From positions 2,334-66,333 of the forward strand of contig JBAXUE010000002.1 in NCBI GenBank assembly GCA_037129835.1: a stretch of 64,000 nucleotides of DNA, read 5' to 3'. The DNA is from a bacterium. Lineage in GTDB: Bacteria > Patescibacteriota > CPR2 > UBA1875 > CAIMLA01. Shown here piece after piece: positions 5,154 to 52,528 of this stretch (positions are counted from its first letter, which is position 1; every line of letters starts with the position of its first letter). Both the position numbers and the translations under genes were made by a program. Under the pieces are notes generated by a model that was not told the DNA's origin, made no database searches, and saw nothing but the letters and a program-made list of their open reading frames with translations.

Positions 5154-6329
5154 ATGAATAAAATTGAAGAAATACTTACTCGCGGCGTTACGGATGTTAT
5201 TGTCAAAGAAGATCTTGAAAAAGTTTTGAAAAGTGACAAAAAGTTACGTATTAAACTAGGTATAGATCCCACTGGCCCAAAACTACATATTGGTCGAGCA
5301 ATTTCCTTGTGGAAGCTACGTGAATTCCAGGACTTAGGACACCAAATAGTTTTGATAATTGGAGATTTTACGGCTCAAACAGGGGACGCCTCTGATAAAA
5401 CAGCAGAAAGACAAATTCTCACACCCGAAGTAATAGCCAAAAATATGAATACATATAAGCAACAAATCGGTATGATTCTCGATATGGATAACGTAGAGAT
5501 ACGCTACAATTCAGAATGGTGGGGTAAGATGAGTGCTGGAGAGTTATTGCAAGAAGCAGCAAATTTCACCGTCAACCAACTAATCAAACGAGATAACTTT
5601 TGGCAAAGATGGGAAAATGATAAACCAATTGGTCTGCATGAAATATTGTACCCGTTGCAACAGGGTTACGACTCTGTTGCCATAAAGGCCGACGTGGAGA
5701 TCGGTGGTAATGATCAGCTGTTTAATCTGCTGGCAGGCCGGACAATGCAAAAAAAATATGGTCAAAAAGAGCAGAATGTAATCACTTTCGAGCTTTTAGA
5801 GGGTACTGACGGACGCAAAATGAGTACTAGTTATGATAATTGTATATATATCGAAGATGAGCCAAATGAAATGTTTGGGAAAATTATGTCGATCAAGGAT
5901 GAATTGATTTTGCGTTATTTGAAGTTAGTTACAGATATACCGATTGGTGAGGTTGAAATGATCAAGCTTGACTTAGAAAATGGGATGAATCCTAGGGATG
6001 CCAAAGTTATTTTAGGTAAAGCACTCGTGTCTAGATATCATGGGGTAGAAAAAGCCGAAGAAGCAAGTCAACATTTTCAGCAAGTTTTCGTTAATAAAGA
6101 AAAACCTACCGCGATTGAAGAGATTGAAATTTTGAAAAAGAAATGGCAGCTTGCAGAACTATTACATTTCGCAGGTTTGGTTTCCTCGAAAACAGACGGA
6201 CGTCGAATAATAGAACAGGGTGGTGTAAAAGTCGATGGAGCCGTGATAGGTGACAGAGAGGCTACCGTTAATTCTACAAGTGGTATGGTCATTCAGGTTG
6301 GCAAGCGAAAATTCATTAAAATAAAATAG
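5154..6329 (+). CDS. tyrS: Tyrosyl-tRNA synthetase
   Basis: Class I HIGH-like motif (P.G..LHIGR), KMSTS (a KMSKS variant) and a C-terminal S4 domain (GRRIIEQGGVKVDG). An AAGGAAG RBS precedes the ATG at 5154; the ORF-track start at 5136 has no RBS. Confidence 0.85.
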   Translation: MNKIEEILTRGVTDVIVKEDLEKVLKSDKKLRIKLGIDPTGPKLHIGRAISLWKLREFQDLGHQIVLIIGDFTAQTGDASDKTAERQILTPEVIAKNMNTYKQQIGMILDMDNVEIRYNSEWWGKMSAGELLQEAANFTVNQLIKRDNFWQRWENDKPIGLHEILYPLQQGYDSVAIKADVEIGGNDQLFNLLAGRTMQKKYGQKEQNVITFELLEGTDGRKMSTSYDNCIYIEDEPNEMFGKIMSIKDELILRYLKLVTDIPIGEVEMIKLDLENGMNPRDAKVILGKALVSRYHGVEKAEEASQHFQQVFVNKEKPTAIEEIEILKKKWQLAELLHFAGLVSSKTDGRRIIEQGGVKVDGAVIGDREATVNSTSGMVIQVGKRKFIKIK

Positions 6330-8650: not shown

Positions 8651-9074
8651 CCAAGAAGAAGAAAAGAAACAAGAAACCAAAAATAAAATCAGAGAACAAA
8701 TCGGCATCCTACTTATCTGTTTAGTCTTGGTATTAAGCGGGTTTCTTTTGCTTAATCAAAAGAAGGATCAAGGAGAAATTAGCTTTGTAGCGGGAGATAA
8801 TACTGTAGTAGCAAATAAAAGCACAGACTCTACTGTAAGTACCCCGCAGGTTGCTGAGAAAACCACAACGGCTTCTATTTCTGAAAAAATTAATATTAAC
8901 ACTGCTTCTATTGAAGATTTAGATAAGCTTTCTGGGGTTGGTCCAGCGACAGCACAAAAAATCATTGATTACAGGGCTCAAAATGGTGGATTCAAATCGA
9001 TTGAAGAAGTAAAAGAAGTTTCTGGGATTGGAGATGTGAAGTATTCACAAATGAAGGATAATATCACTATTTAG
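8643..9074 (+). CDS. comEA: ComEA-like helix-hairpin-helix DNA-binding competence protein
   Basis: TTG start overlapping the recG stop. An N-terminal TM helix and a C-terminal tandem HhH (INTAS.EDLDKLSGVGPATAQKIIDYR...). No in-frame ATG lies upstream of the TM segment. Confidence 0.7.
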   Translation: MSNQEEEKKQETKNKIREQIGILLICLVLVLSGFLLLNQKKDQGEISFVAGDNTVVANKSTDSTVSTPQVAEKTTTASISEKININTASIEDLDKLSGVGPATAQKIIDYRAQNGGFKSIEEVKEVSGIGDVKYSQMKDNITI

Positions 9075-9079
9075 AGAGC

Positions 9080-9108
9080 TTGAAAAATCGGTTCAAAAGA
9101 TGTAAAAT
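9080..9108 (+). promoter_or_regulatory. Sigma70-type promoter TTGAAA-N17-TAAAAT upstream of tRNA-Leu
   Basis: TTGAAA at 9080-9085, an exactly 17-nt spacer, and TAAAAT at 9103-9108, about 45 nt upstream of the tRNA 5' end. Confidence 0.5.
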
Positions 9109-9154
9109 AGTCAAGTTAACTTTGTGCGAAATGATATCTTCTATAGAAAACCAT

Positions 9155-9239
9155 GGGGATGTGGTGAAACTGGTATACACGCTAGTTTTAGGAACTAGTG
9201 CCGCAAGGCGTGGAGGTTCGATTCCTCTCATCCCCACCA
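9155..9239 (+). tRNA. tRNA-Leu (anticodon TAG), CCA encoded
   Basis: Acceptor GGGGATG/CATCCCC. Anticodon stem CTAGT/ACTAG with loop TTTAGGA. A long 13-nt variable arm, T-loop TTCGATT, discriminator A followed by CCA. Total 85 nt. Confidence 0.9.
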
Positions 9240-9375
9240 CGTCAGCATTCGCTGGCGCATGACGCAGATTGACTAACGTCAACTGTTTTATGCTTTCGCG
9301 ATGCTTCCTCTCCCGACAAAATTAGATAAATTTTGTCGGCAACGAGAAATATTAACGATAAAACTAGGAGGAACT

Positions 9376-9693
9376 ATGTTACACGTAGATGATACAAACT
9401 TTGAAAAGGAAGTAGTAAAAAGTGATATTCCAGTAATAGTGGATTTTTTTGCAGATTGGTGTGGACCTTGTAAAATGATGGGCCCAATCTTTGAGGAAGT
9501 AGGAAAAAAGTTTCATGGTAAAGTTAAATTTGTTAAATTAAATGTCGACGAAGCCCAGAAAACAGCACAAAAATACGGTGTTATGAGTATTCCGACATTG
9601 ATTACCTTTAAGGTCGGTGAGCCAGTTGATACTTTGGTAGGACTTCAGGACGAAGATTCACTGTCAGAAAAAGCAGAAAAACTTTTAAAGTAA
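9376..9693 (+). CDS. trxA: Thioredoxin
   Basis: WCGPCK active site and about 105 aa. An AGGAGG RBS precedes the ATG at 9376. The longer 9301 ORF start has no RBS and would run through a leader hairpin. Confidence 0.85.
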   Translation: MLHVDDTNFEKEVVKSDIPVIVDFFADWCGPCKMMGPIFEEVGKKFHGKVKFVKLNVDEAQKTAQKYGVMSIPTLITFKVGEPVDTLVGLQDEDSLSEKAEKLLK

Positions 9694-9722
9694 AAATATT
9701 AAATAAAATATTCCCCGCCCTC

Positions 9723-9800
9723 TGTCATCCTGAGGAGCGAAATGGAATTTTTGCGACGTGAGGATCTCGGCAGATTGCCGCGCTTCGCTCGCAATGACGG
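9723..9800 (+). repeat. Palindromic intergenic element of the TGTCATCC...GGATCTC...ATGAC family (copy 1)
   Basis: 5' TGTCATCC, internal GAGGATCTC, 3' GCAATGACGG. The outer arms TGTCAT..AGCGAA and TTCGCT..ATGACG are inverted. It lies in the trxA-tig spacer. Confidence 0.5.
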
Positions 9801-47929: not shown

Positions 47930-48661
47930 ATGTGGTCTTTTGTATTTATAGTCATAGTAGCCCTAGTAGTATTATATTTTTCGGCTAAATCCAAGAATAA
48001 CGATACCGAAATTATTATTGGCCAAAAAAAGGAAGTTAAAAAAATAGGGGACCGGATACAGGAAGTTCTTGACATAGAGGAAACAGAGAAGAAGACCGAA
48101 AAAGAGCATAGAGGTATTATCTCTGAGGCAAATAAGCTAGTTCGTGGCAAAAGATTAAAACAGGCAGAAAAAAAGTATCTTTCAATATTAATTAAAGATC
48201 ATAAGAATTCAAAAGCCTATCTTGGTCTTGGTAATATATATCTAGAACAAGAAGAATATTCTGGGGCGGCAGAGGCTTTTAAAAAAGTGACGGAACTTGA
48301 GCCGACAAATGATATTGCCTTTAATAATTTGGGAATGGCATTAATGAAAACAAAGAATTATCTAGAAGCAGTTACGGCCTACGAGCATGCAGTCGCTTTG
48401 GGTTCAAAGCTTTCTCATAGATATATAAACCTTGCTTTGGCAGCGGAAAAGGCAGGGGAGACAAAAAAGCAAATTAGTGCCCTTGAGCACGCCGTATCTC
48501 TTGAGCCAGACAAAACAGAATATTTGGTGGCTCTCTCTAATGTGGCTATATCTGCAGATGATAATTCAGCAGCTAAGAAAGCGCTAGAAAAACTTGTAGA
48601 AATTGAGCCGGGTAATCTGGATGCACAACGAAAGCTAGCTAGACTCCAGGGTGACAGTTAG
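47930..48661 (+). CDS. Tetratricopeptide-repeat protein with an N-terminal TM anchor
   Basis: Multiple TPR-like units (AY.GLGNIYLEQEEY..A.EAFKK...L.P.N..A.NNLG.A). Confidence 0.65.
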   Translation: MWSFVFIVIVALVVLYFSAKSKNNDTEIIIGQKKEVKKIGDRIQEVLDIEETEKKTEKEHRGIISEANKLVRGKRLKQAEKKYLSILIKDHKNSKAYLGLGNIYLEQEEYSGAAEAFKKVTELEPTNDIAFNNLGMALMKTKNYLEAVTAYEHAVALGSKLSHRYINLALAAEKAGETKKQISALEHAVSLEPDKTEYLVALSNVAISADDNSAAKKALEKLVEIEPGNLDAQRKLARLQGDS

Positions 48662-48666
48662 TTTCA

Positions 48667-48695
48667 TTGACTTTTGGCCTTTATTTTACTATAAT
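48667..48695 (+). promoter_or_regulatory. Consensus sigma70 promoter TTGACT-N17-TATAAT upstream of the tRNA-Thr/Tyr/Thr cluster
   Basis: TTGACT at 48667-48672, a 17-nt spacer, and a perfect TATAAT at 48690-48695, about 40 nt before the tRNA-Thr 5' end. Confidence 0.6.
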
Positions 48696-48736
48696 ATTCT
48701 AGTTTATTGGCTCGCAGTTAGGCTCTTTTTTTATTA

Positions 48737-48811
48737 GCCGCCTTAGCTCAGTGGTAGAGCAACTGTTTTGTAAACAGTCGGTCGTCGGTTCAAGTCCGAC
48801 AGGCGGCTCCA
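48737..48811 (+). tRNA. tRNA-Thr (anticodon TGT), CCA encoded
   Basis: Acceptor GCCGCCT/AGGCGGC. Anticodon stem ACTGT/ACAGT with loop TTTGTAA. T-loop TTCAAGT. 75 nt. Confidence 0.9.
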
Positions 48812-48910
48812 CGTCGCAATTCGTTATCTGGTTTCGCGGATAAACTAAAGTTTACCGCTTCACCATTTTACGATTGCTCCTTTCCGAGAAAAATCTACAA
48901 TTTTCCTCGG
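48812..48910 (+). ncRNA. Conserved structured trailer element downstream of tRNA-Thr(TGT) (copy A); function unknown
   Basis: Hairpin 1 GCGG[A]TAAAC-taaa-GTTTACCGC, then TTCACCA..CGATT, then hairpin 2 CCGAG[A]AAAA..TTTTCCTCGG. About 75% identical to the copy at 49211-49309, with compensatory stem changes. Confidence 0.4.
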
Positions 48911-48931
48911 CACCTAGGGATTACAACTTGA

Positions 48932-49017
48932 GGGGAGTTACCGAAGCGGTCAAACGGAGCAGACTGTAAATCTGTTGGCATACGCCTTCGGGGGTTCGAA
49001 TCCCTCACTCCCCACCA
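48932..49017 (+). tRNA. tRNA-Tyr (anticodon GTA), long variable arm, CCA encoded
   Basis: Acceptor GGGGAGT/ACTCCCC. Anticodon stem GCAGA/TCTGT with loop CTGTAAA. 86 nt. Confidence 0.9.
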
Positions 49018-49134
49018 TTATTCGCTAAAGCTACGAATGGCAAGCCAAGAGTAGATTTTGCGAATAATTTCCGTCCGAAGCTATAAGTGCGAAGGAGGAC
49101 CGAAACAAAATAACATTAAAATGTGCGCCCACGC

Positions 49135-49210
49135 GCCCACCTAGCTCAGTCGGTAGAGCGCATCCATGGTAAGGATGAGGTCATCGGTTCAATCCCGATG
49201 GTGGGCTCCA
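49135..49210 (+). tRNA. tRNA-Thr (anticodon GGT), CCA encoded
   Basis: Acceptor GCCCACC/GGTGGGC. Anticodon stem CATCC/GGATG with loop ATGGTAA. 76 nt. Confidence 0.9.
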
Positions 49211-49309
49211 CGTCATAATGCATTAGCTGGTTACGCGGATTAGCTGGAACTAACCGCTTCACCATATCACGATTACTCTTTTCCGAGAAAAACTTACGTT
49301 TTTCCTCGG
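49211..49309 (+). ncRNA. Conserved structured trailer element downstream of tRNA-Thr(GGT) (copy B); function unknown
   Basis: Hairpin 1 GCGG[A]TTAG-ctggaa-CTAACCGC (the stem sequence differs from copy A but pairing is preserved), TTCACCA..CGATT, and hairpin 2 identical in its stem to copy A. Confidence 0.4.
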
Positions 49310-49343
49310 TCATGAGGGAATAAATATAAGAATAGGAGATAAA

Positions 49344-49514
49344 ATGGCATCAAAGAAAAAAGATATCCGTCCAGTGATCACCCTTGAGTGTACTGAGTGT
49401 AAGGAGCGTAATTATGCTACTACTAAAAACACTCGGAATACCACAGCCCGCGTAGAACTTAAAAAGTTCTGTAAACGTGAGCACATTCACACATTGCACC
49501 GCGAAACAAAATAA
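49344..49514 (+). CDS. rpmG: 50S ribosomal protein L33
   Basis: 56 aa with a C..C...C..C zinc ribbon (CTECKERNY...FCKREH). A GGAGA RBS is present. Confidence 0.9.
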
Positions 49515-49519
49515 ATGGT

Positions 49520-49630
49520 TTGTCATCCTTGTCATTCGACTCTGAGGTGAGAGACACCTCATCGCTCAGACTCGAAGAGCGGAAGCAAGGATCTCTTTCA
49601 CCAGAGATTCCTGCCTTCGCAGGAATGACA
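49520..49630 (+). repeat. Palindromic intergenic element of the TGTCATCC family (copy 5, longest), between rpmG and tRNA-Trp
   Basis: TGTCATCC at the 5' end, a long internal hairpin (CGACTCTGAGGTG..CACCTCA.CGCTCAGACTCG), the GGATCTC box, a hairpin CCTGC-cttc-GCAGG, and a terminal GAATGACAG. Confidence 0.5.
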
Positions 49631-49743
49631 GTATAGTTTCTTCACAGTGGGGTCCCCGAAATCTGCAGGATTTAAGGGGAAGAGGAAGAGTCGCGAAAAG
49701 TTATAGCAACAAAGTTGCGAATACTGACAGCGGACTCTGACGA

Positions 49744-49817
49744 AGGGGCGTAGTTAAACGGTATAACGTAGGTCTCCAAAACCTTTGTTGAGGGTTCGAT
49801 TCCTTCCGCCCCTGCCA
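49744..49817 (+). tRNA. tRNA-Trp (anticodon CCA)
   Basis: Acceptor AGGGGCG/CGCCCCT. Anticodon loop CTCCAAA. T-loop TTCGATT. Discriminator G followed by CCA. 74 nt. Confidence 0.85.
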
Positions 49818-49925
49818 GATTGAGCGCCAGTTAATACCACTGGCGACCGAGGTGCCTAGGTCACCACGGAATATAACCAAGACCAACAAAAAATCTCTTA
49901 AATCTTTACGGTTTAGGGGATTTTT

Positions 49926-51197
49926 TTAGATTTCGACTACTTTACGATCACGAACCGCTAGTTTGACGTTTAAGTTTCGAATTAATTGGGTCTTTTCGGA
50001 CTCAGAACCCTTTTCGAGCACATATTTGGCATAACCTTTGATTACCTCTGTTTTGGAATATTTTTTGTTGGGATTCATGGTTTCGAGCATGTTCTCGAAC
50101 TTTTTAATGGCTTTGGCCAGTCCTGGCTCAATCGATATCTTCTTAACCGTCAGTCTACTGGAAATGATTAGTAGCTGTTCCACTAGGTCCCTTTCGGTTA
50201 TATACGGCTCGTGGCATTCATCTTTGGCGTGTCTGACACAGTGATAGTAAACATGACGGTTTTTATCCCCATTTTTAAGTTTCTTGAACTTTTCTTCACC
50301 AACCATCATTGCACCGCAACTGTAGCAGGTCAAAAATCTCCGAAATGTAAATTCCCTGGAACCCCATTTAACTCTTTTAGGGGCTACGATCTGTTTTTGG
50401 GCTTCGTCAAACAGCTCTTTGGTCACTAATGGTTCATGGGAACCTTTATACCATTTCCCGCTACCGATCGGATATTCAAACATTCCATAGTAGAAAGGAT
50501 TCTTTAGCATTAAATATATTGAGCTTAGGTTCACAAGCTTTCCTTTTCTTGAAGTGGCTCCAATGATGTCTAACCAGACTTTGAGAGTGCGGCCACTCTC
50601 ACCTTTAGCCGCTCGTTTGAACATCTCTGTGACAAACGGTCCACGTTCGGGATCAATGACAATATCATGAACCCCGGCCATCACTCGATTGTAATAACCG
50701 ATTGGCGGCATACACGGTCTCCAGCCCATCTCACATTTAGCCCTGATGCCTCTTTTTACGCTCTCGCCTCTGTTGTCGTTTTCAAGCTTGGCTTGAGAGC
50801 AGAGAATCATCAGCATAAACTTCTCGCTCGGAGTGTTTGTAAAGCTTTGGGTGAAGGTTCTGATTTTAAGAAGTTTCTTATCGTCCATCAGATCCACTAG
50901 CGAACCCAAGTCGCCAGCATTTCTTGAAAGTCGGTCGGGTGCCCAGGTAAGTAGGCTATTTACCTCGCCGCTCCTTAAATCGGTCAGTAACTGCATAAAA
51001 ACTGGTCGTTGTCCCGATTGTTTGGCGGAATAGCTTTCCTGAAGAACTTTGACGACATTAATGCCTTCTTTGACTGCTAACTCCTTCATTTCTTTGATTT
51101 GAGAATCAATTGACATCGCTTGCCGCTCATCAGACTCGGATGATTTTCTGGCGTAAAGGCAGTACTTTAATTCGACTTTATCTGCTGTATTTTCCAT
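49926..51197 (-). CDS. Large serine recombinase (resolvase/integrase family)
   Basis: N-terminal resolvase catalytic domain (YARKSSESDERQ..SIDSQ.....V.E), a recombinase domain, and a C-terminal zinc-ribbon-like CYSCG...YYHC. 423 aa. Confidence 0.8.
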   Translation of the reverse strand: MENTADKVELKYCLYARKSSESDERQAMSIDSQIKEMKELAVKEGINVVKVLQESYSAKQSGQRPVFMQLLTDLRSGEVNSLLTWAPDRLSRNAGDLGSLVDLMDDKKLLKIRTFTQSFTNTPSEKFMLMILCSQAKLENDNRGESVKRGIRAKCEMGWRPCMPPIGYYNRVMAGVHDIVIDPERGPFVTEMFKRAAKGESGRTLKVWLDIIGATSRKGKLVNLSSIYLMLKNPFYYGMFEYPIGSGKWYKGSHEPLVTKELFDEAQKQIVAPKRVKWGSREFTFRRFLTCYSCGAMMVGEEKFKKLKNGDKNRHVYYHCVRHAKDECHEPYITERDLVEQLLIISSRLTVKKISIEPGLAKAIKKFENMLETMNPNKKYSKTEVIKGYAKYVLEKGSESEKTQLIRNLNVKLAVRDRKVVEI

Positions 51198-51322
51198 CGG
51201 GGACGATGGTATCGCTGATTTGAGAGGAATGTAAGTAGAAAATTTGATTATCTTAGGTACAAAAGTGTTTATTTTCTAATCTTTTTGCTATATATTGAAG
51301 ATAGTTTAAAAAAGGAGCAAAT

Positions 51323-52528
51323 ATGCCAGGAGAAGCACCAGCACCATATGAACCAGATTATAAAGAGCACGAAGAAGTTTATGAGACTATGACGGATGAG
51401 CAGGAAAAGCTTACTAGAGAACGAGAAGCTGAACAGTTTAATCGGGAGAATGATCCCAGTATAGCGTTCGAAATGGCGCGACAGGAAGACTACGGCTACA
51501 CTCAAGTAGAGTATCTTACTCGACTTGGGGAAATTTTGGATAAAAGTGACGATGAGATAAATAAGTATGAAGCTACCCATGCTTTAGTTGACGAATATCG
51601 TGAGAAAGTGGACGAGGGGCATAGATTTGGAAGAAGTATACGCTTTAAAGACTTTGCACTGGGTAATAGCTTTACCGAAGATAGGGACAGAAGAGTATCT
51701 AAGGTAGAAACTCCAAAAGACCTTGAAGAGGCGAAGGATTGGACAAAACGACAAGCAGAAGACGCGGCTGAATATTACCAAAGAAGAGGAAGACAAGAAA
51801 AGTTTCTCCAACAGGTCGGGGATCAGCTTTATGAAGAAATAGGGCTTGAGAAAGGTCAGCCATTATCGGCGGCCGAAAATACAGAGTTTCAAAAAGAGCT
51901 TAAGGATAGAGTAGAGAAAGCGAGAGAGGAATATTCATATTCAGACCTTCTTGCGGAGGTCCACTCAATATGGGCAACATACAATGTCTTATGGGGTAGG
52001 ATTACGAATATATTGGAAGATGAAAGAGCAAAATCTCATGTTAAGGGAAGGGAGTCCAGGGATCAAGACGTTGAGCGGTTCGATCTACCATCGCTAGATG
52101 ACAGAGATACTGGCGATGCCCTTGGTGGGAAAATCGAGTATATGTACCCAGAATCTGTTGGGAATGTGATGGGAAGGCTAATCTTACGAAAAATGGACAT
52201 CACAAAGGGCAAATACGCCGGCAACCTTGTTGTTAAGGAAGAGTCTCCACTTCAAGGAAAAATCGATTCATGGGTGGAGCAATATAAGGATCTGGCTGGA
52301 CTTGGCTTTAATTTCGATAGCAAATATGGGCTTCTGGACGCTACGCTATCGAAATTACTCGAAGAAGAATTAATACAACGCTCGCTTACGCCTGAAGCTT
52401 ATAAAGATAAAGATAAGAGGGCTAAGCTTATTAGCCAAATTGGAAATGAGTATAACGCACCCAAAATGCTCGCTGGTGTAGCGGAAAACGAGCTTAAGCG
52501 TAGATTTAATAAGGAAGAGACGATATAA
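51323..52528 (+). CDS. Highly charged 401-aa hypothetical protein (cargo of the integrative element)
   Basis: An AAAGGAG RBS is present. E/K/R/D-rich and probably coiled-coil, with no recognisable catalytic motif. Divergent from the recombinase gene. Confidence 0.5.
   Translation: MPGEAPAPYEPDYKEHEEVYETMTDEQEKLTREREAEQFNRENDPSIAFEMARQEDYGYTQVEYLTRLGEILDKSDDEINKYEATHALVDEYREKVDEGHRFGRSIRFKDFALGNSFTEDRDRRVSKVETPKDLEEAKDWTKRQAEDAAEYYQRRGRQEKFLQQVGDQLYEEIGLEKGQPLSAAENTEFQKELKDRVEKAREEYSYSDLLAEVHSIWATYNVLWGRITNILEDERAKSHVKGRESRDQDVERFDLPSLDDRDTGDALGGKIEYMYPESVGNVMGRLILRKMDITKGKYAGNLVVKEESPLQGKIDSWVEQYKDLAGLGFNFDSKYGLLDATLSKLLEEELIQRSLTPEAYKDKDKRAKLISQIGNEYNAPKMLAGVAENELKRRFNKEETI

Follow-up and report, generated by a model that had tools for sequence, protein, structure and literature searches.

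Structured palindromic repeats at tRNA gene borders in a narrow clade of Patescibacteria

The locus and its elements

The 64,000-nucleotide stretch of contig JBAXUE010000002.1 analysed here (the window) comes from a member of the Patescibacteria, or candidate phyla radiation (CPR), as judged from NusG and neighbouring proteins, and contains four members of a family of structured elements, each about 110 bp long and adjacent to a tRNA gene. The surroundings throughout the 64 kb are core housekeeping genes (rpoBC, ribosomal protein operons, trigger factor and recG), and the gene order is the same in the relatives' loci anchored on NusG. The tRNA genes were placed by ARAGORN and Rfam. The main cluster, read on the plus strand, is comprised of tRNA-Thr(TGT) (48737-48811), tRNA-Tyr(GTA) (48932-49017), tRNA-Thr(GGT) (49135-49210), rpmG, which encodes ribosomal protein L33 (49344-49514), and tRNA-Trp(CCA) (49744-49817). 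A separate tRNA-Leu(TAG) gene (9155-9239, plus strand) lies upstream of the thioredoxin gene trx (9377-9693, plus strand). The CCA end is encoded in both tRNA-Thr genes and in tRNA-Leu.

Two elements are trailers of the tRNA-Thr genes. Copy A follows tRNA-Thr(TGT) (48812-48925, plus strand) and copy B, which has the same architecture, follows tRNA-Thr(GGT) (49211-49324, plus strand). They score 124.7 and 121.7 bits, respectively, with R1, a covariance model built from five copies with a hand-derived structure (93% paired, 11 of 27 pairs changed on both sides). Exact or three-mismatch motif searches of the window returned these two copies only, against 0.00-0.02 matches expected by chance, and the preliminary description of the locus had counted two. 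The covariance model alone brought out the two others. The third member is the trailer of tRNA-Leu (9240-9354, plus strand; R1 73.7 bits, E 1e-15), which is flush with the CCA and ends 22 nt before trx. The fourth is inverted and forms the leader of tRNA-Trp (49638-49742, minus strand; R1 38.4 bits, E 3e-7), with its CGTC end 1 nt from the tRNA +1 position; rpmG lies between copy B and this element. R2, a model built from 17 copies, gives 102.9 bits for the Leu trailer and 75.7 bits for the Trp leader. All four occupy the three tRNA-bearing gaps of the window, which has about 17 gaps of at least 100 nt by a count from the list of open reading frames.

Much of what had been reported for the two Thr trailers is borne out. 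Their segments 48812-48910 and 49211-49309 are 78.8% identical (78/99 nt), compared with 69.7% (53/76) for the tRNA-Thr genes themselves. Single-sequence folding predicts hairpin 1 with its bulged A in both, as GCGG-A-UAAAC/GUUUA-CCGC in copy A and GCGG-A-UUAG/CUAA-CCGC in copy B. Hairpin 2 is likewise present in both (48884-48910 and 49283-49309), where it leaves 21 nt to tRNA-Tyr and 34 nt to the rpmG ATG. The folding z scores of the Thr trailers are -5.35 and -3.04, and that of the Leu trailer is -5.76.

The cluster from tRNA-Thr(TGT) through rpmG to tRNA-Trp has a sole promoter-like site on the plus strand, TTGACT-17-TATAAT (48667-48695, 11 of 12 matches). The sole strong candidate upstream of tRNA-Leu, its element and trx is TTGAAA-17-TAAAAT (9080-9108, plus strand, 10 of 12 matches); weaker sites with 9 of 12 matches occur inside trx. 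A terminator scan found no site in 8900-9800, and in the Thr-Trp cluster it called neither hairpin 2 nor any convincing terminator. The only plus-strand hit in the Thr trailers was a 5-bp stem at the junction of tRNA-Thr(TGT) and copy A (48803-48817), which has no convincing U tract. Judging from these single strong upstream promoter-like sites and from the lack of a convincing terminator between, the elements, the tRNAs and the genes downstream very probably share a transcript. The suggestion that the Thr trailers are a termination signal is not sustained, because no U tract follows either hairpin.

Architecture and covariation of the element

The element runs from a CGTC end, present at the start of 16 of the 17 known copies, through an irregular hairpin of about 62 nt (domain 1) and a YUCCUYU linker to hairpin 2, 10-12 bp long, in which a GC clamp is combined with an A/U core. 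Domain 1 is built up of helix P1 (5 bp, a 1-nt bulge and 3 bp), an internal loop, P2 (4 bp), a symmetric UNC/UNC internal loop, P3 (4 bp), the bulged A and an apical stem of variable sequence. In trailers, hairpin 2 is followed by a purine-rich GAGGRA. The parts of copy A, all on the plus strand, are the CGTC (48812-48815), domain 1 (48816-48877) with P1 (48816-48824/48870-48877), P2 (48829-48832/48862-48865), P3 (48836-48839/48855-48858), bulged A (48840) and apical stem (48841-48854), then the linker UCCUUU (48878-48883), hairpin 2 (48884-48910) and AGGGA (48916-48920). Copy B has three A·C mismatches on the plus strand, at P1a, P1b and hairpin 2; P1 is fully paired in its same-site counterpart in a metagenome locus (L088). 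The Leu trailer begins with CGTC and forms P1 as AGCAU-U-CGC/GCG-AUGCU, P2 as GCAU/AUGC and P3 as GCAG-A-UUGAC/GUCAA-CUGU with the bulged A, followed by the linker UCCUCU and an 11-bp hairpin 2.

The proposal of a structured, selected element with covariation is supported by the covariance alignments of 5 and 17 copies. In the latter, pairing is kept in 93.2% of the cells, and both partners have changed in 22 of 27 pairs. Covariation scores 0.72, compared with 0.21 in shuffles, none of 500 of which reached it, and with 0.08-0.15 when the partners were slid; the 17 copies were aligned by fitting to the model, which somewhat inflates these pairing and covariation figures. An independent MAFFT alignment of five copies gives the same picture. 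Two relatives, L002 and L084, carry compensatory changes in every helix: UGGU/ACCA becomes GGCA/UGCC, GCGG/CCGC becomes GCGU/ACGC, and CCGAG becomes CCAG or CCAAG. The CACCA after hairpin 1, which had been likened to a tRNA 3' end, is a helix strand. Its ACCA is the 3' strand of P2, pairs with UGGU, and varies to UGCC, AUGC and similar sequences in other copies.

In trailers, CUCCUU could plausibly pair with GAGGGA around hairpin 2 to form a further helix, P4. This helix is not part of the model because it is not in register across subfamilies and is missing from the Trp-type leaders.

Distribution and polarity

The family comprises 17 copies, four in the window and 13 in related Patescibacteria. 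The labels L001 to L095 denote the loci of relatives and metagenomes that were compared with the window, those of the relatives being anchored on NusG or on trigger factor. Besides the window copies at 9240 (plus) and 49742 (minus), R1 gave new matches in L001, L002, L004, L084 and L087, and later in L091, L092 and L094. Scans of this kind had been proposed in the preliminary description, which named an absence from relatives, along with the lack of a discrete transcript, as the outcome that would speak against the element; further copies were found, and homologues do exist in relatives. In L002 and L084 a clear homologue is sited after tRNA-Tyr, and in each of these loci two inverted whole elements have hairpin 2 in common. 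Inverted copies abut the 5' ends of tRNA-Thr(GGT) and tRNA-Trp in L002, L084 and L087. At the trigger-factor-anchored loci a tRNA-Leu trailer is present in L091 and L094. L093 has no copy of the element, and in L095 hairpin 2 alone is kept, flush with the CCA. A degenerate pattern scan of JGI metagenomes returned three loci. L088 is new and has a copy after tRNA-Thr(GGT), the same site as copy B; L090 is from the same species as L084, and L089 is a chance match in a GC-rich coding region. R2 found nothing further in 1.48 Mb, including 80 NusG-anchored GTDB loci from more distant Patescibacteria, so that the range of the family is limited to a narrow clade of Patescibacteria.

A tRNA end is abutted by 15 of the 17 copies, and the CGTC end faces the tRNA in every case. 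Eight of the nine trailers start 0 nt after the CCA; the remaining one, in L091, starts at 1 nt, and its 5' end is mutated. Among the six leaders, five end 1 nt before the tRNA +1 position and the sixth 4 nt before it. Polarity is fixed: the hairpin-1 end points toward the tRNA whether the element is a 3' trailer or an inverted 5' leader. The copies lie flush with mature tRNA ends, very probably inside transcription units, and together they constitute a lineage-specific, structurally constrained, dispersed family of palindromic repeats at tRNA borders. The presumed linkage to tRNA-Thr does not hold, as members also follow tRNA-Leu and tRNA-Tyr, lie inverted before tRNA-Trp, tRNA-Thr and tRNA-Leu, and in two cases have no tRNA neighbour.

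Both positions are combined in L092, where tRNA-Leu is flanked by an inverted leader 1 nt before +1 and a trailer directly after the CCA, in the arrangement ...GACG-N-tRNA-CCA-CGTC..., with a promoter-like site upstream of the leader. A processing stem of the rRNA type formed between this leader and trailer was considered and rejected because their complementarity is limited to CGACG/CGUCG. One of the copies without a tRNA neighbour lies upstream of mraZ (L004, 4750-4924), where it follows a promoter-like TTGCAT-18-TAAAAT and three GTGGGG repeats resembling MraZ operator boxes. It is therefore placed in a regulated 5' untranslated region rather than beside a tRNA.

Selection and turnover

Copies at the same site are similar in different genomes. 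The identities are 90% for the Thr(GGT) trailers, 82% for the Leu trailers of the window and L091, 83% for the Tyr trailers, 77% for the Thr(GGT) leaders and 76-82% for the Trp leaders, the Trp leader of the window being 82% identical to that of L087 and 76% to that of L002. Trigger factor is 57-66% identical across these genomes: 66% where the Leu trailers are 82% identical, and 57% where the Trp leaders are 76-82% identical. Copy B and its counterpart in L088 diverge by 9%, compared with 28% at the third codon positions of rpmG; over the comparisons made, these positions differ by 28-35% and the elements by 9% and about 15%, the latter estimated by eye. The changes between same-site copies are either compensatory or located in loops. 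Because same-site identity is high despite the deep divergence of the genomes in trigger factor and rpmG third positions, each copy is taken to be under purifying selection at its site.

Between the Leu trailers of L092 and L094 and the type found in the window and L091, identity is no more than 45-58%. Together with the patchy occupancy of equivalent sites, this indicates turnover. The site of copy A measures 0-24 nt in relatives and holds no family member. Since copy A is 83% identical to the Thr(GGT) trailer of L088 and 76% to copy B, it is a fairly recent duplicate of the Thr(GGT) trailer, set precisely between the CCA and the +1 position of tRNA-Tyr. Comparison of filled and empty sites revealed no target duplication at copy A.

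Neighbouring sequences

Other spacers of the cluster have unusual features of their own. The spacer between tRNA-Tyr and tRNA-Thr(GGT) (49017-49134) holds a different structured insert with a 25-nt inverted repeat (49017-49041/49044-49068) flush with the CCA of tRNA-Tyr. A hairpin, TCCGTCCGAAGCTATAAGTGCGAAGGAGGACCGA (about 49071-49105), follows this repeat, and its motif is found again behind tRNA-Tyr in L003 (GCCCGTTCCGTAGCTTTAGCGAAGGAGGGC) and also in L006. This insert may represent a second family of CCA-flush hairpin spacers. The start of tRNA-Thr(GGT), GCCCAC, is duplicated just upstream of the gene (49123-49140; gcgcccacgc followed directly by GCCCACC), and the duplication is kept in four genomes, the others being L085, L087 and L005. 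Some short trailers of relatives without the element are complementary to the 3' end of their own tRNA (L087 4709-4730 and L001 8761-8786; GGCUCCA...UGGAGCC and CCAUUAAU...AUUAAUGG). Such complementarity would sequester the CCA end in a precursor hairpin.

Between the rpmG stop codon and the inverted element lies an insert of about 120 nt (49515-49637). Inverted termini, TGTCATTC...GAATGACA, bound this insert, and it has a palindrome, GACTCTGAGGTGAGAGACACCTCATCGCTCAGACTC, in its interior. The window contains one copy of it and none of the relatives examined has any; it looks like a separate insertion akin to MITEs (miniature inverted-repeat transposable elements). The region from tRNA-Trp to secE (49926-52528) contains a 423-aa serine recombinase with Resolvase, Recombinase and Zn-ribbon domains, encoded on the minus strand, and a 401-aa open reading frame without a Pfam match. 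Relatives have a NUDIX gene in this place, and the region is probably an integrated mobile element beside tRNA-Trp.

The locus is rearranged in several relatives. The tRNA-rpmG-tRNA-Trp block is inverted with respect to its flanks in L005 (8077-8620), L084 (4527-5217) and L085 (4681-5229), and in L001 (8688-8956) the two tRNA-Thr genes are swapped in place. Both kinds of change could have been mediated by inverted repeats at tRNA borders. Partial duplicates of the 3' halves of tRNA-Thr, tRNA-Tyr and tRNA-Leu are found downstream of the intact genes (L006, about 5517-5548 and 5838-5858; L093, about 9469-9491) and are what elements integrating into tRNA 3' ends typically leave behind. In L094 a GC-rich non-coding stretch of about 540 nt (8825-9360), with several palindromes and no Rfam match, lies upstream of tRNA-Leu.

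Possible functions of the element

It is quite possible, if somewhat short of an even chance, that the copies act as punctuation or end-capping hairpins in tRNA-containing transcripts. Once RNase P and a 3'-end nuclease had excised the tRNA, the adjacent RNA, which may be the trx-tig mRNA, the rpmG mRNA or the next pre-tRNA, would carry a stable hairpin at a distance of 4-5 nt from the 5' or 3' end newly made. In the E. coli model of polycistronic tRNA processing, as outlined in PMC2190699, the cuts fall just after the CCA and, by RNase P, at the 5' end. The element would then be a module that insulates and stabilises the RNAs of tRNA-punctuated operons, much like the roles proposed for repetitive extragenic palindromic (REP) sequences, bacterial interspersed mosaic elements (BIMEs) and 5' stem-loop stabilisers. 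Because the element is palindromic in structure, end-capping would work in either orientation. New copies would arise by rare copying at the DNA level, also in either orientation, and one such event would have given rise to copy A. In favour of a role in RNA, the DNA has no feature that would define the mature end of a tRNA to the nucleotide, and the elements very probably lie inside transcripts.

Several results fit poorly with a strand-specific RNA and weigh against end-capping. Leaders and trailers give complementary RNAs, yet the same DNA motifs (CGTC, TTTCGC and YTCCTYT) are kept in both. The helices contain 11 G·U and 13 A·C pairs, that is, no excess of G·U, and there is no strand signal in trailers (7 versus 8) or in leaders (2 versus 4). 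The antisense strand of the element folds better in 16 of the 17 copies, whichever strand is transcribed; in the Thr trailers the better-folding strand is the non-transcribed one. On the antisense strand the UNC/UNC loops read as GNA/GNA. Copies between two tRNAs, such as copy A and the pairs in L002 and L084, have no mRNA to protect, and two copies are not adjacent to a tRNA at all, the one upstream of mraZ in L004 and another between a 221-aa gene and trkA in L001. Close relatives also manage without the element at the Thr, Tyr and Trp sites: no family member was found at the Thr and Tyr sites of L001, L003, L005, L085 and L087, where the spacers measure 0-33 nt apart from the 169-nt Tyr-Thr(GGT) spacer of L003. 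Of the functional RNA originally proposed, the structure and its covariation stand, and a strand-specific regulatory RNA is hard to reconcile with motifs kept in both orientations, with G·U pairs no more frequent than A·C and with the better folding of the non-transcribed strand.

A purely DNA-level role, as a mobile element or a protein-binding site, is a serious rival. One form of it, rather unlikely on balance, is a selfish non-autonomous element of the REPIN, MITE or palindrome-associated transposable element (PATE) kind, in which a trans-acting enzyme (an HUH/RAYT-type or other recombinase) recognises the folded hairpins of one DNA strand. Such an element would insert beside tRNA genes, which themselves form cloverleaves in single-stranded DNA, and its structure would be kept for mobility without any RNA function. 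This would account for multiple copies in both orientations, for equivalent sites that are patchily filled (the Thr and Tyr sites just mentioned being empty) and differ by clean insertion with no target duplication, for different members at the same tRNA-Leu 3' site (45-58% identical), and for the recent duplication behind copy A. It also fits covariation that is Watson-Crick only, with G·U about as frequent as A·C, and a strand asymmetry that tracks the element and not the direction of transcription. REPINs, moreover, are reported to be about 100 bp long, to duplicate slowly and to be inherited vertically (bioRxiv 10.1101/2024.07.17.603846). The copies, however, are old (45-83% identical between sites) and evolve about three times more slowly at the same site than synonymous positions, unlike decaying selfish DNA. 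They have no terminal inverted repeats and no conserved target beyond the CCA, the window holds a large serine recombinase and no other transposase gene, and no class of element is known to insert flush at the two mature ends of tRNAs. A host function at the DNA level is improbable. The copies would then be oriented or cruciform-forming sites for gyrase, IHF or HU, as at the BIMEs of E. coli, or for another boundary factor, bracketing heavily transcribed tRNA genes as topological or transcriptional insulators. BIMEs bind gyrase and IHF, and the mirroring of polarity about the tRNA gene rather than the direction of transcription, the identity of the motifs in both orientations without a G·U excess, and the purifying selection on same-site copies would all be as expected. 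Against this, the DNA itself offers nothing that would single out the mature end of a tRNA within 0-1 nt, no protein was identified as a candidate for binding, and the helix sequences vary freely while pairing is kept, which fits folded single strands better than binding to double-stranded DNA.

The functional RNA linked to tRNA-Thr of the preliminary description, whether as a discrete small RNA, as a regulator of the gene that follows or as a Thr-specific termination signal, is very improbable. It would share the conserved, covarying structure, and the linker does resemble an anti-Shine-Dalgarno sequence (CUCCUU) and, upstream of rpmG, trx and mraZ, lies opposite a Shine-Dalgarno-like GAGGGA on the other side of hairpin 2. 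Given the distribution of the copies, however, at tRNA-Leu, tRNA-Tyr, tRNA-Trp and tRNA-free sites and in both orientations, this reading is largely refuted; copy A precedes a tRNA gene and not an mRNA, neither hairpin has a U tract on its 3' side, and the CACCA is a helix strand. Least probable is a neutral leftover, without function, of a segmental duplication of tRNA-Thr with its trailer. The similarity of copy A to the Thr(GGT) trailer lineage (L088 and copy B) speaks for a duplication, but one recent event of this kind fails to explain the family: relatives have both tRNA-Thr genes without any trailer, members also sit beside other tRNAs, the changes seen are compensatory ones, and copies at the same site diverge about threefold less than synonymous sites.

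It is doubtful, though conceivable, that the family is a previously undescribed class of tRNA-boundary element that marks both mature tRNA ends with mirror polarity. Two readings would fit such a class: a recognition or end-capping signal for tRNA-punctuation RNA processing in CPR bacteria, or the trace left by a new mobile element that finds the termini of tRNA genes through their folded DNA. CPR genomes are about 1 Mb in size and contain very little intergenic DNA. The clade nevertheless keeps repeats of about 110 bp under purifying selection exactly at tRNA borders, in operons with essential genes (rpmG, trx-tig), despite this compactness. Should end-capping be correct, it would show how polycistronic tRNA-mRNA transcripts are processed and stabilised in organisms whose RNA-processing machinery is little known, and would provide a testable bacterial counterpart of mitochondrial tRNA punctuation. 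If the elements are mobile, they would have a new targeting specificity, the mature ends of tRNA genes, and could account for the inversions and the reshuffling of tRNAs at the locus among relatives. In either case, the covariance model can be used to annotate this non-coding sequence in metagenome-assembled genomes.

Comparison with known systems

Rfam 15 gave no match other than tRNA at E <= 10 in the region 48000-50500, and gathering-threshold scans of the whole window and of L091-L094 likewise gave only tRNAs. Literature searches returned no description of such elements in Patescibacteria. Several individual classes were examined and rejected. Intrinsic terminators do not correspond, as the run of U is part of the hairpin 2 stem and is followed by CACC or UCAU. 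Nor does a tRNA-like end or CCA minihelix: the ACCA pairs as P2 and is replaced by UGCC/GGCA, AUGC/GCAU and so on, and ARAGORN finds no tRNA there. The bulged A recalls integron attC sites, but no R''/R' core sites (RYYYAAC ... GTTRRRY) are present at the ends of any copy in the 17-copy alignment. A small protein on the minus strand (AAGGAG-N10-AUG) lacks conservation: it would read MVKR* in copy A, runs through antisense tRNA in copy B and has no AUG in L002. The antisense GGUGAAG-stem-CGAAAC recalls the hammerhead CUGAUGA-stem-GAAAC, but lacks C3 and A9, and there is no Rfam ribozyme match.

MITEs and the PATEs of the IS200/IS605 type are similarly small and non-coding, have hairpins near both ends and show presence/absence polymorphism between relatives; the IS200/IS605 type also inserts without target duplication. 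The family does not conform to the MITE, since insertion is clean and without duplication at Thr(TGT)/Tyr and Thr(GGT)/rpmG and the ends, CGTC... and ...GAGGGA(A), are not inverted repeats. Nor does it conform to the PATE, as the 5' flanks vary (TCCA, ACCA, ACAT, CCTT, CCTA, GGCT, TCCG) and hairpin 1 bears no relation to hairpin 2; neither a parent insertion sequence nor a TnpA gene was observed.

The ompA and aprE leaders and the hairpins of phage T7 early mRNAs likewise place a stable hairpin a few nucleotides from an RNA end made by processing, which for the present family is only the inferred function. Such 5' stem-loop stabilisers and RNase III-processed 3' hairpins are single-copy, gene-specific and of one orientation. 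The RtT RNA repeats of the E. coli tyrT operon (RF00391) are, like the family, repeated structured RNAs in the 3' part of a tRNA operon, co-transcribed and tied to processing. They differ in size and architecture, and are not found inverted at tRNA 5' ends; the family has no RF00391 match.

The PstI palindromes of Neurospora mitochondria have short GC-rich cores of about 18 bp. The family element, by comparison, is bacterial and not organellar, measures about 110 bp, has two domains and A/U-rich parts, and shows no sequence relationship to them. Both are dispersed palindromes that flank tRNA genes in compact genomes with polycistronic transcription, and the roles proposed for such fungal repeats include transcript processing, according to PMC7218506.

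Families of stem-loop repeats are common in bacteria (PMC2267715). Among these, REPs, BIMEs and REPINs share with the present elements an intergenic, hairpin-forming unit of about 100 bp, many copies in both orientations, the lack of target-site duplication, a long life with slow duplication, and structure that is kept beyond sequence. The proposed roles of these repeats include the protection of mRNA ends and protein binding; the properties named are summarised in bioRxiv 10.1101/2024.07.17.603846. A REP is defined by a GTAG-type head and a palindrome of 20-40 nt, whereas the family has a CGTC end (16/17) and a palindromic domain of 62 nt that folds into a multi-helix hairpin. This hairpin, domain 1, is long and interrupted, and neither it nor the inverted pairs of L002 and L084 are doublets of short REPs of the REPIN type, in which a hairpin of about 100 nt is built from two REPs in inverted arrangement. 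The unit consists of two different hairpin domains, the copies differ far more from one another (45-83% identity), their host, a CPR bacterium, has a very small genome, and there is no RAYT gene in the window. Flush, polar placement at tRNA ends is a feature of the family and not a property of REPs. Although it thus lacks the features of a REP head, a MITE, a PATE, an attC site or a terminator, the family resembles the REP/BIME/REPIN repeats, the PstI palindromes of Neurospora and the RtT repeats of tyrT.

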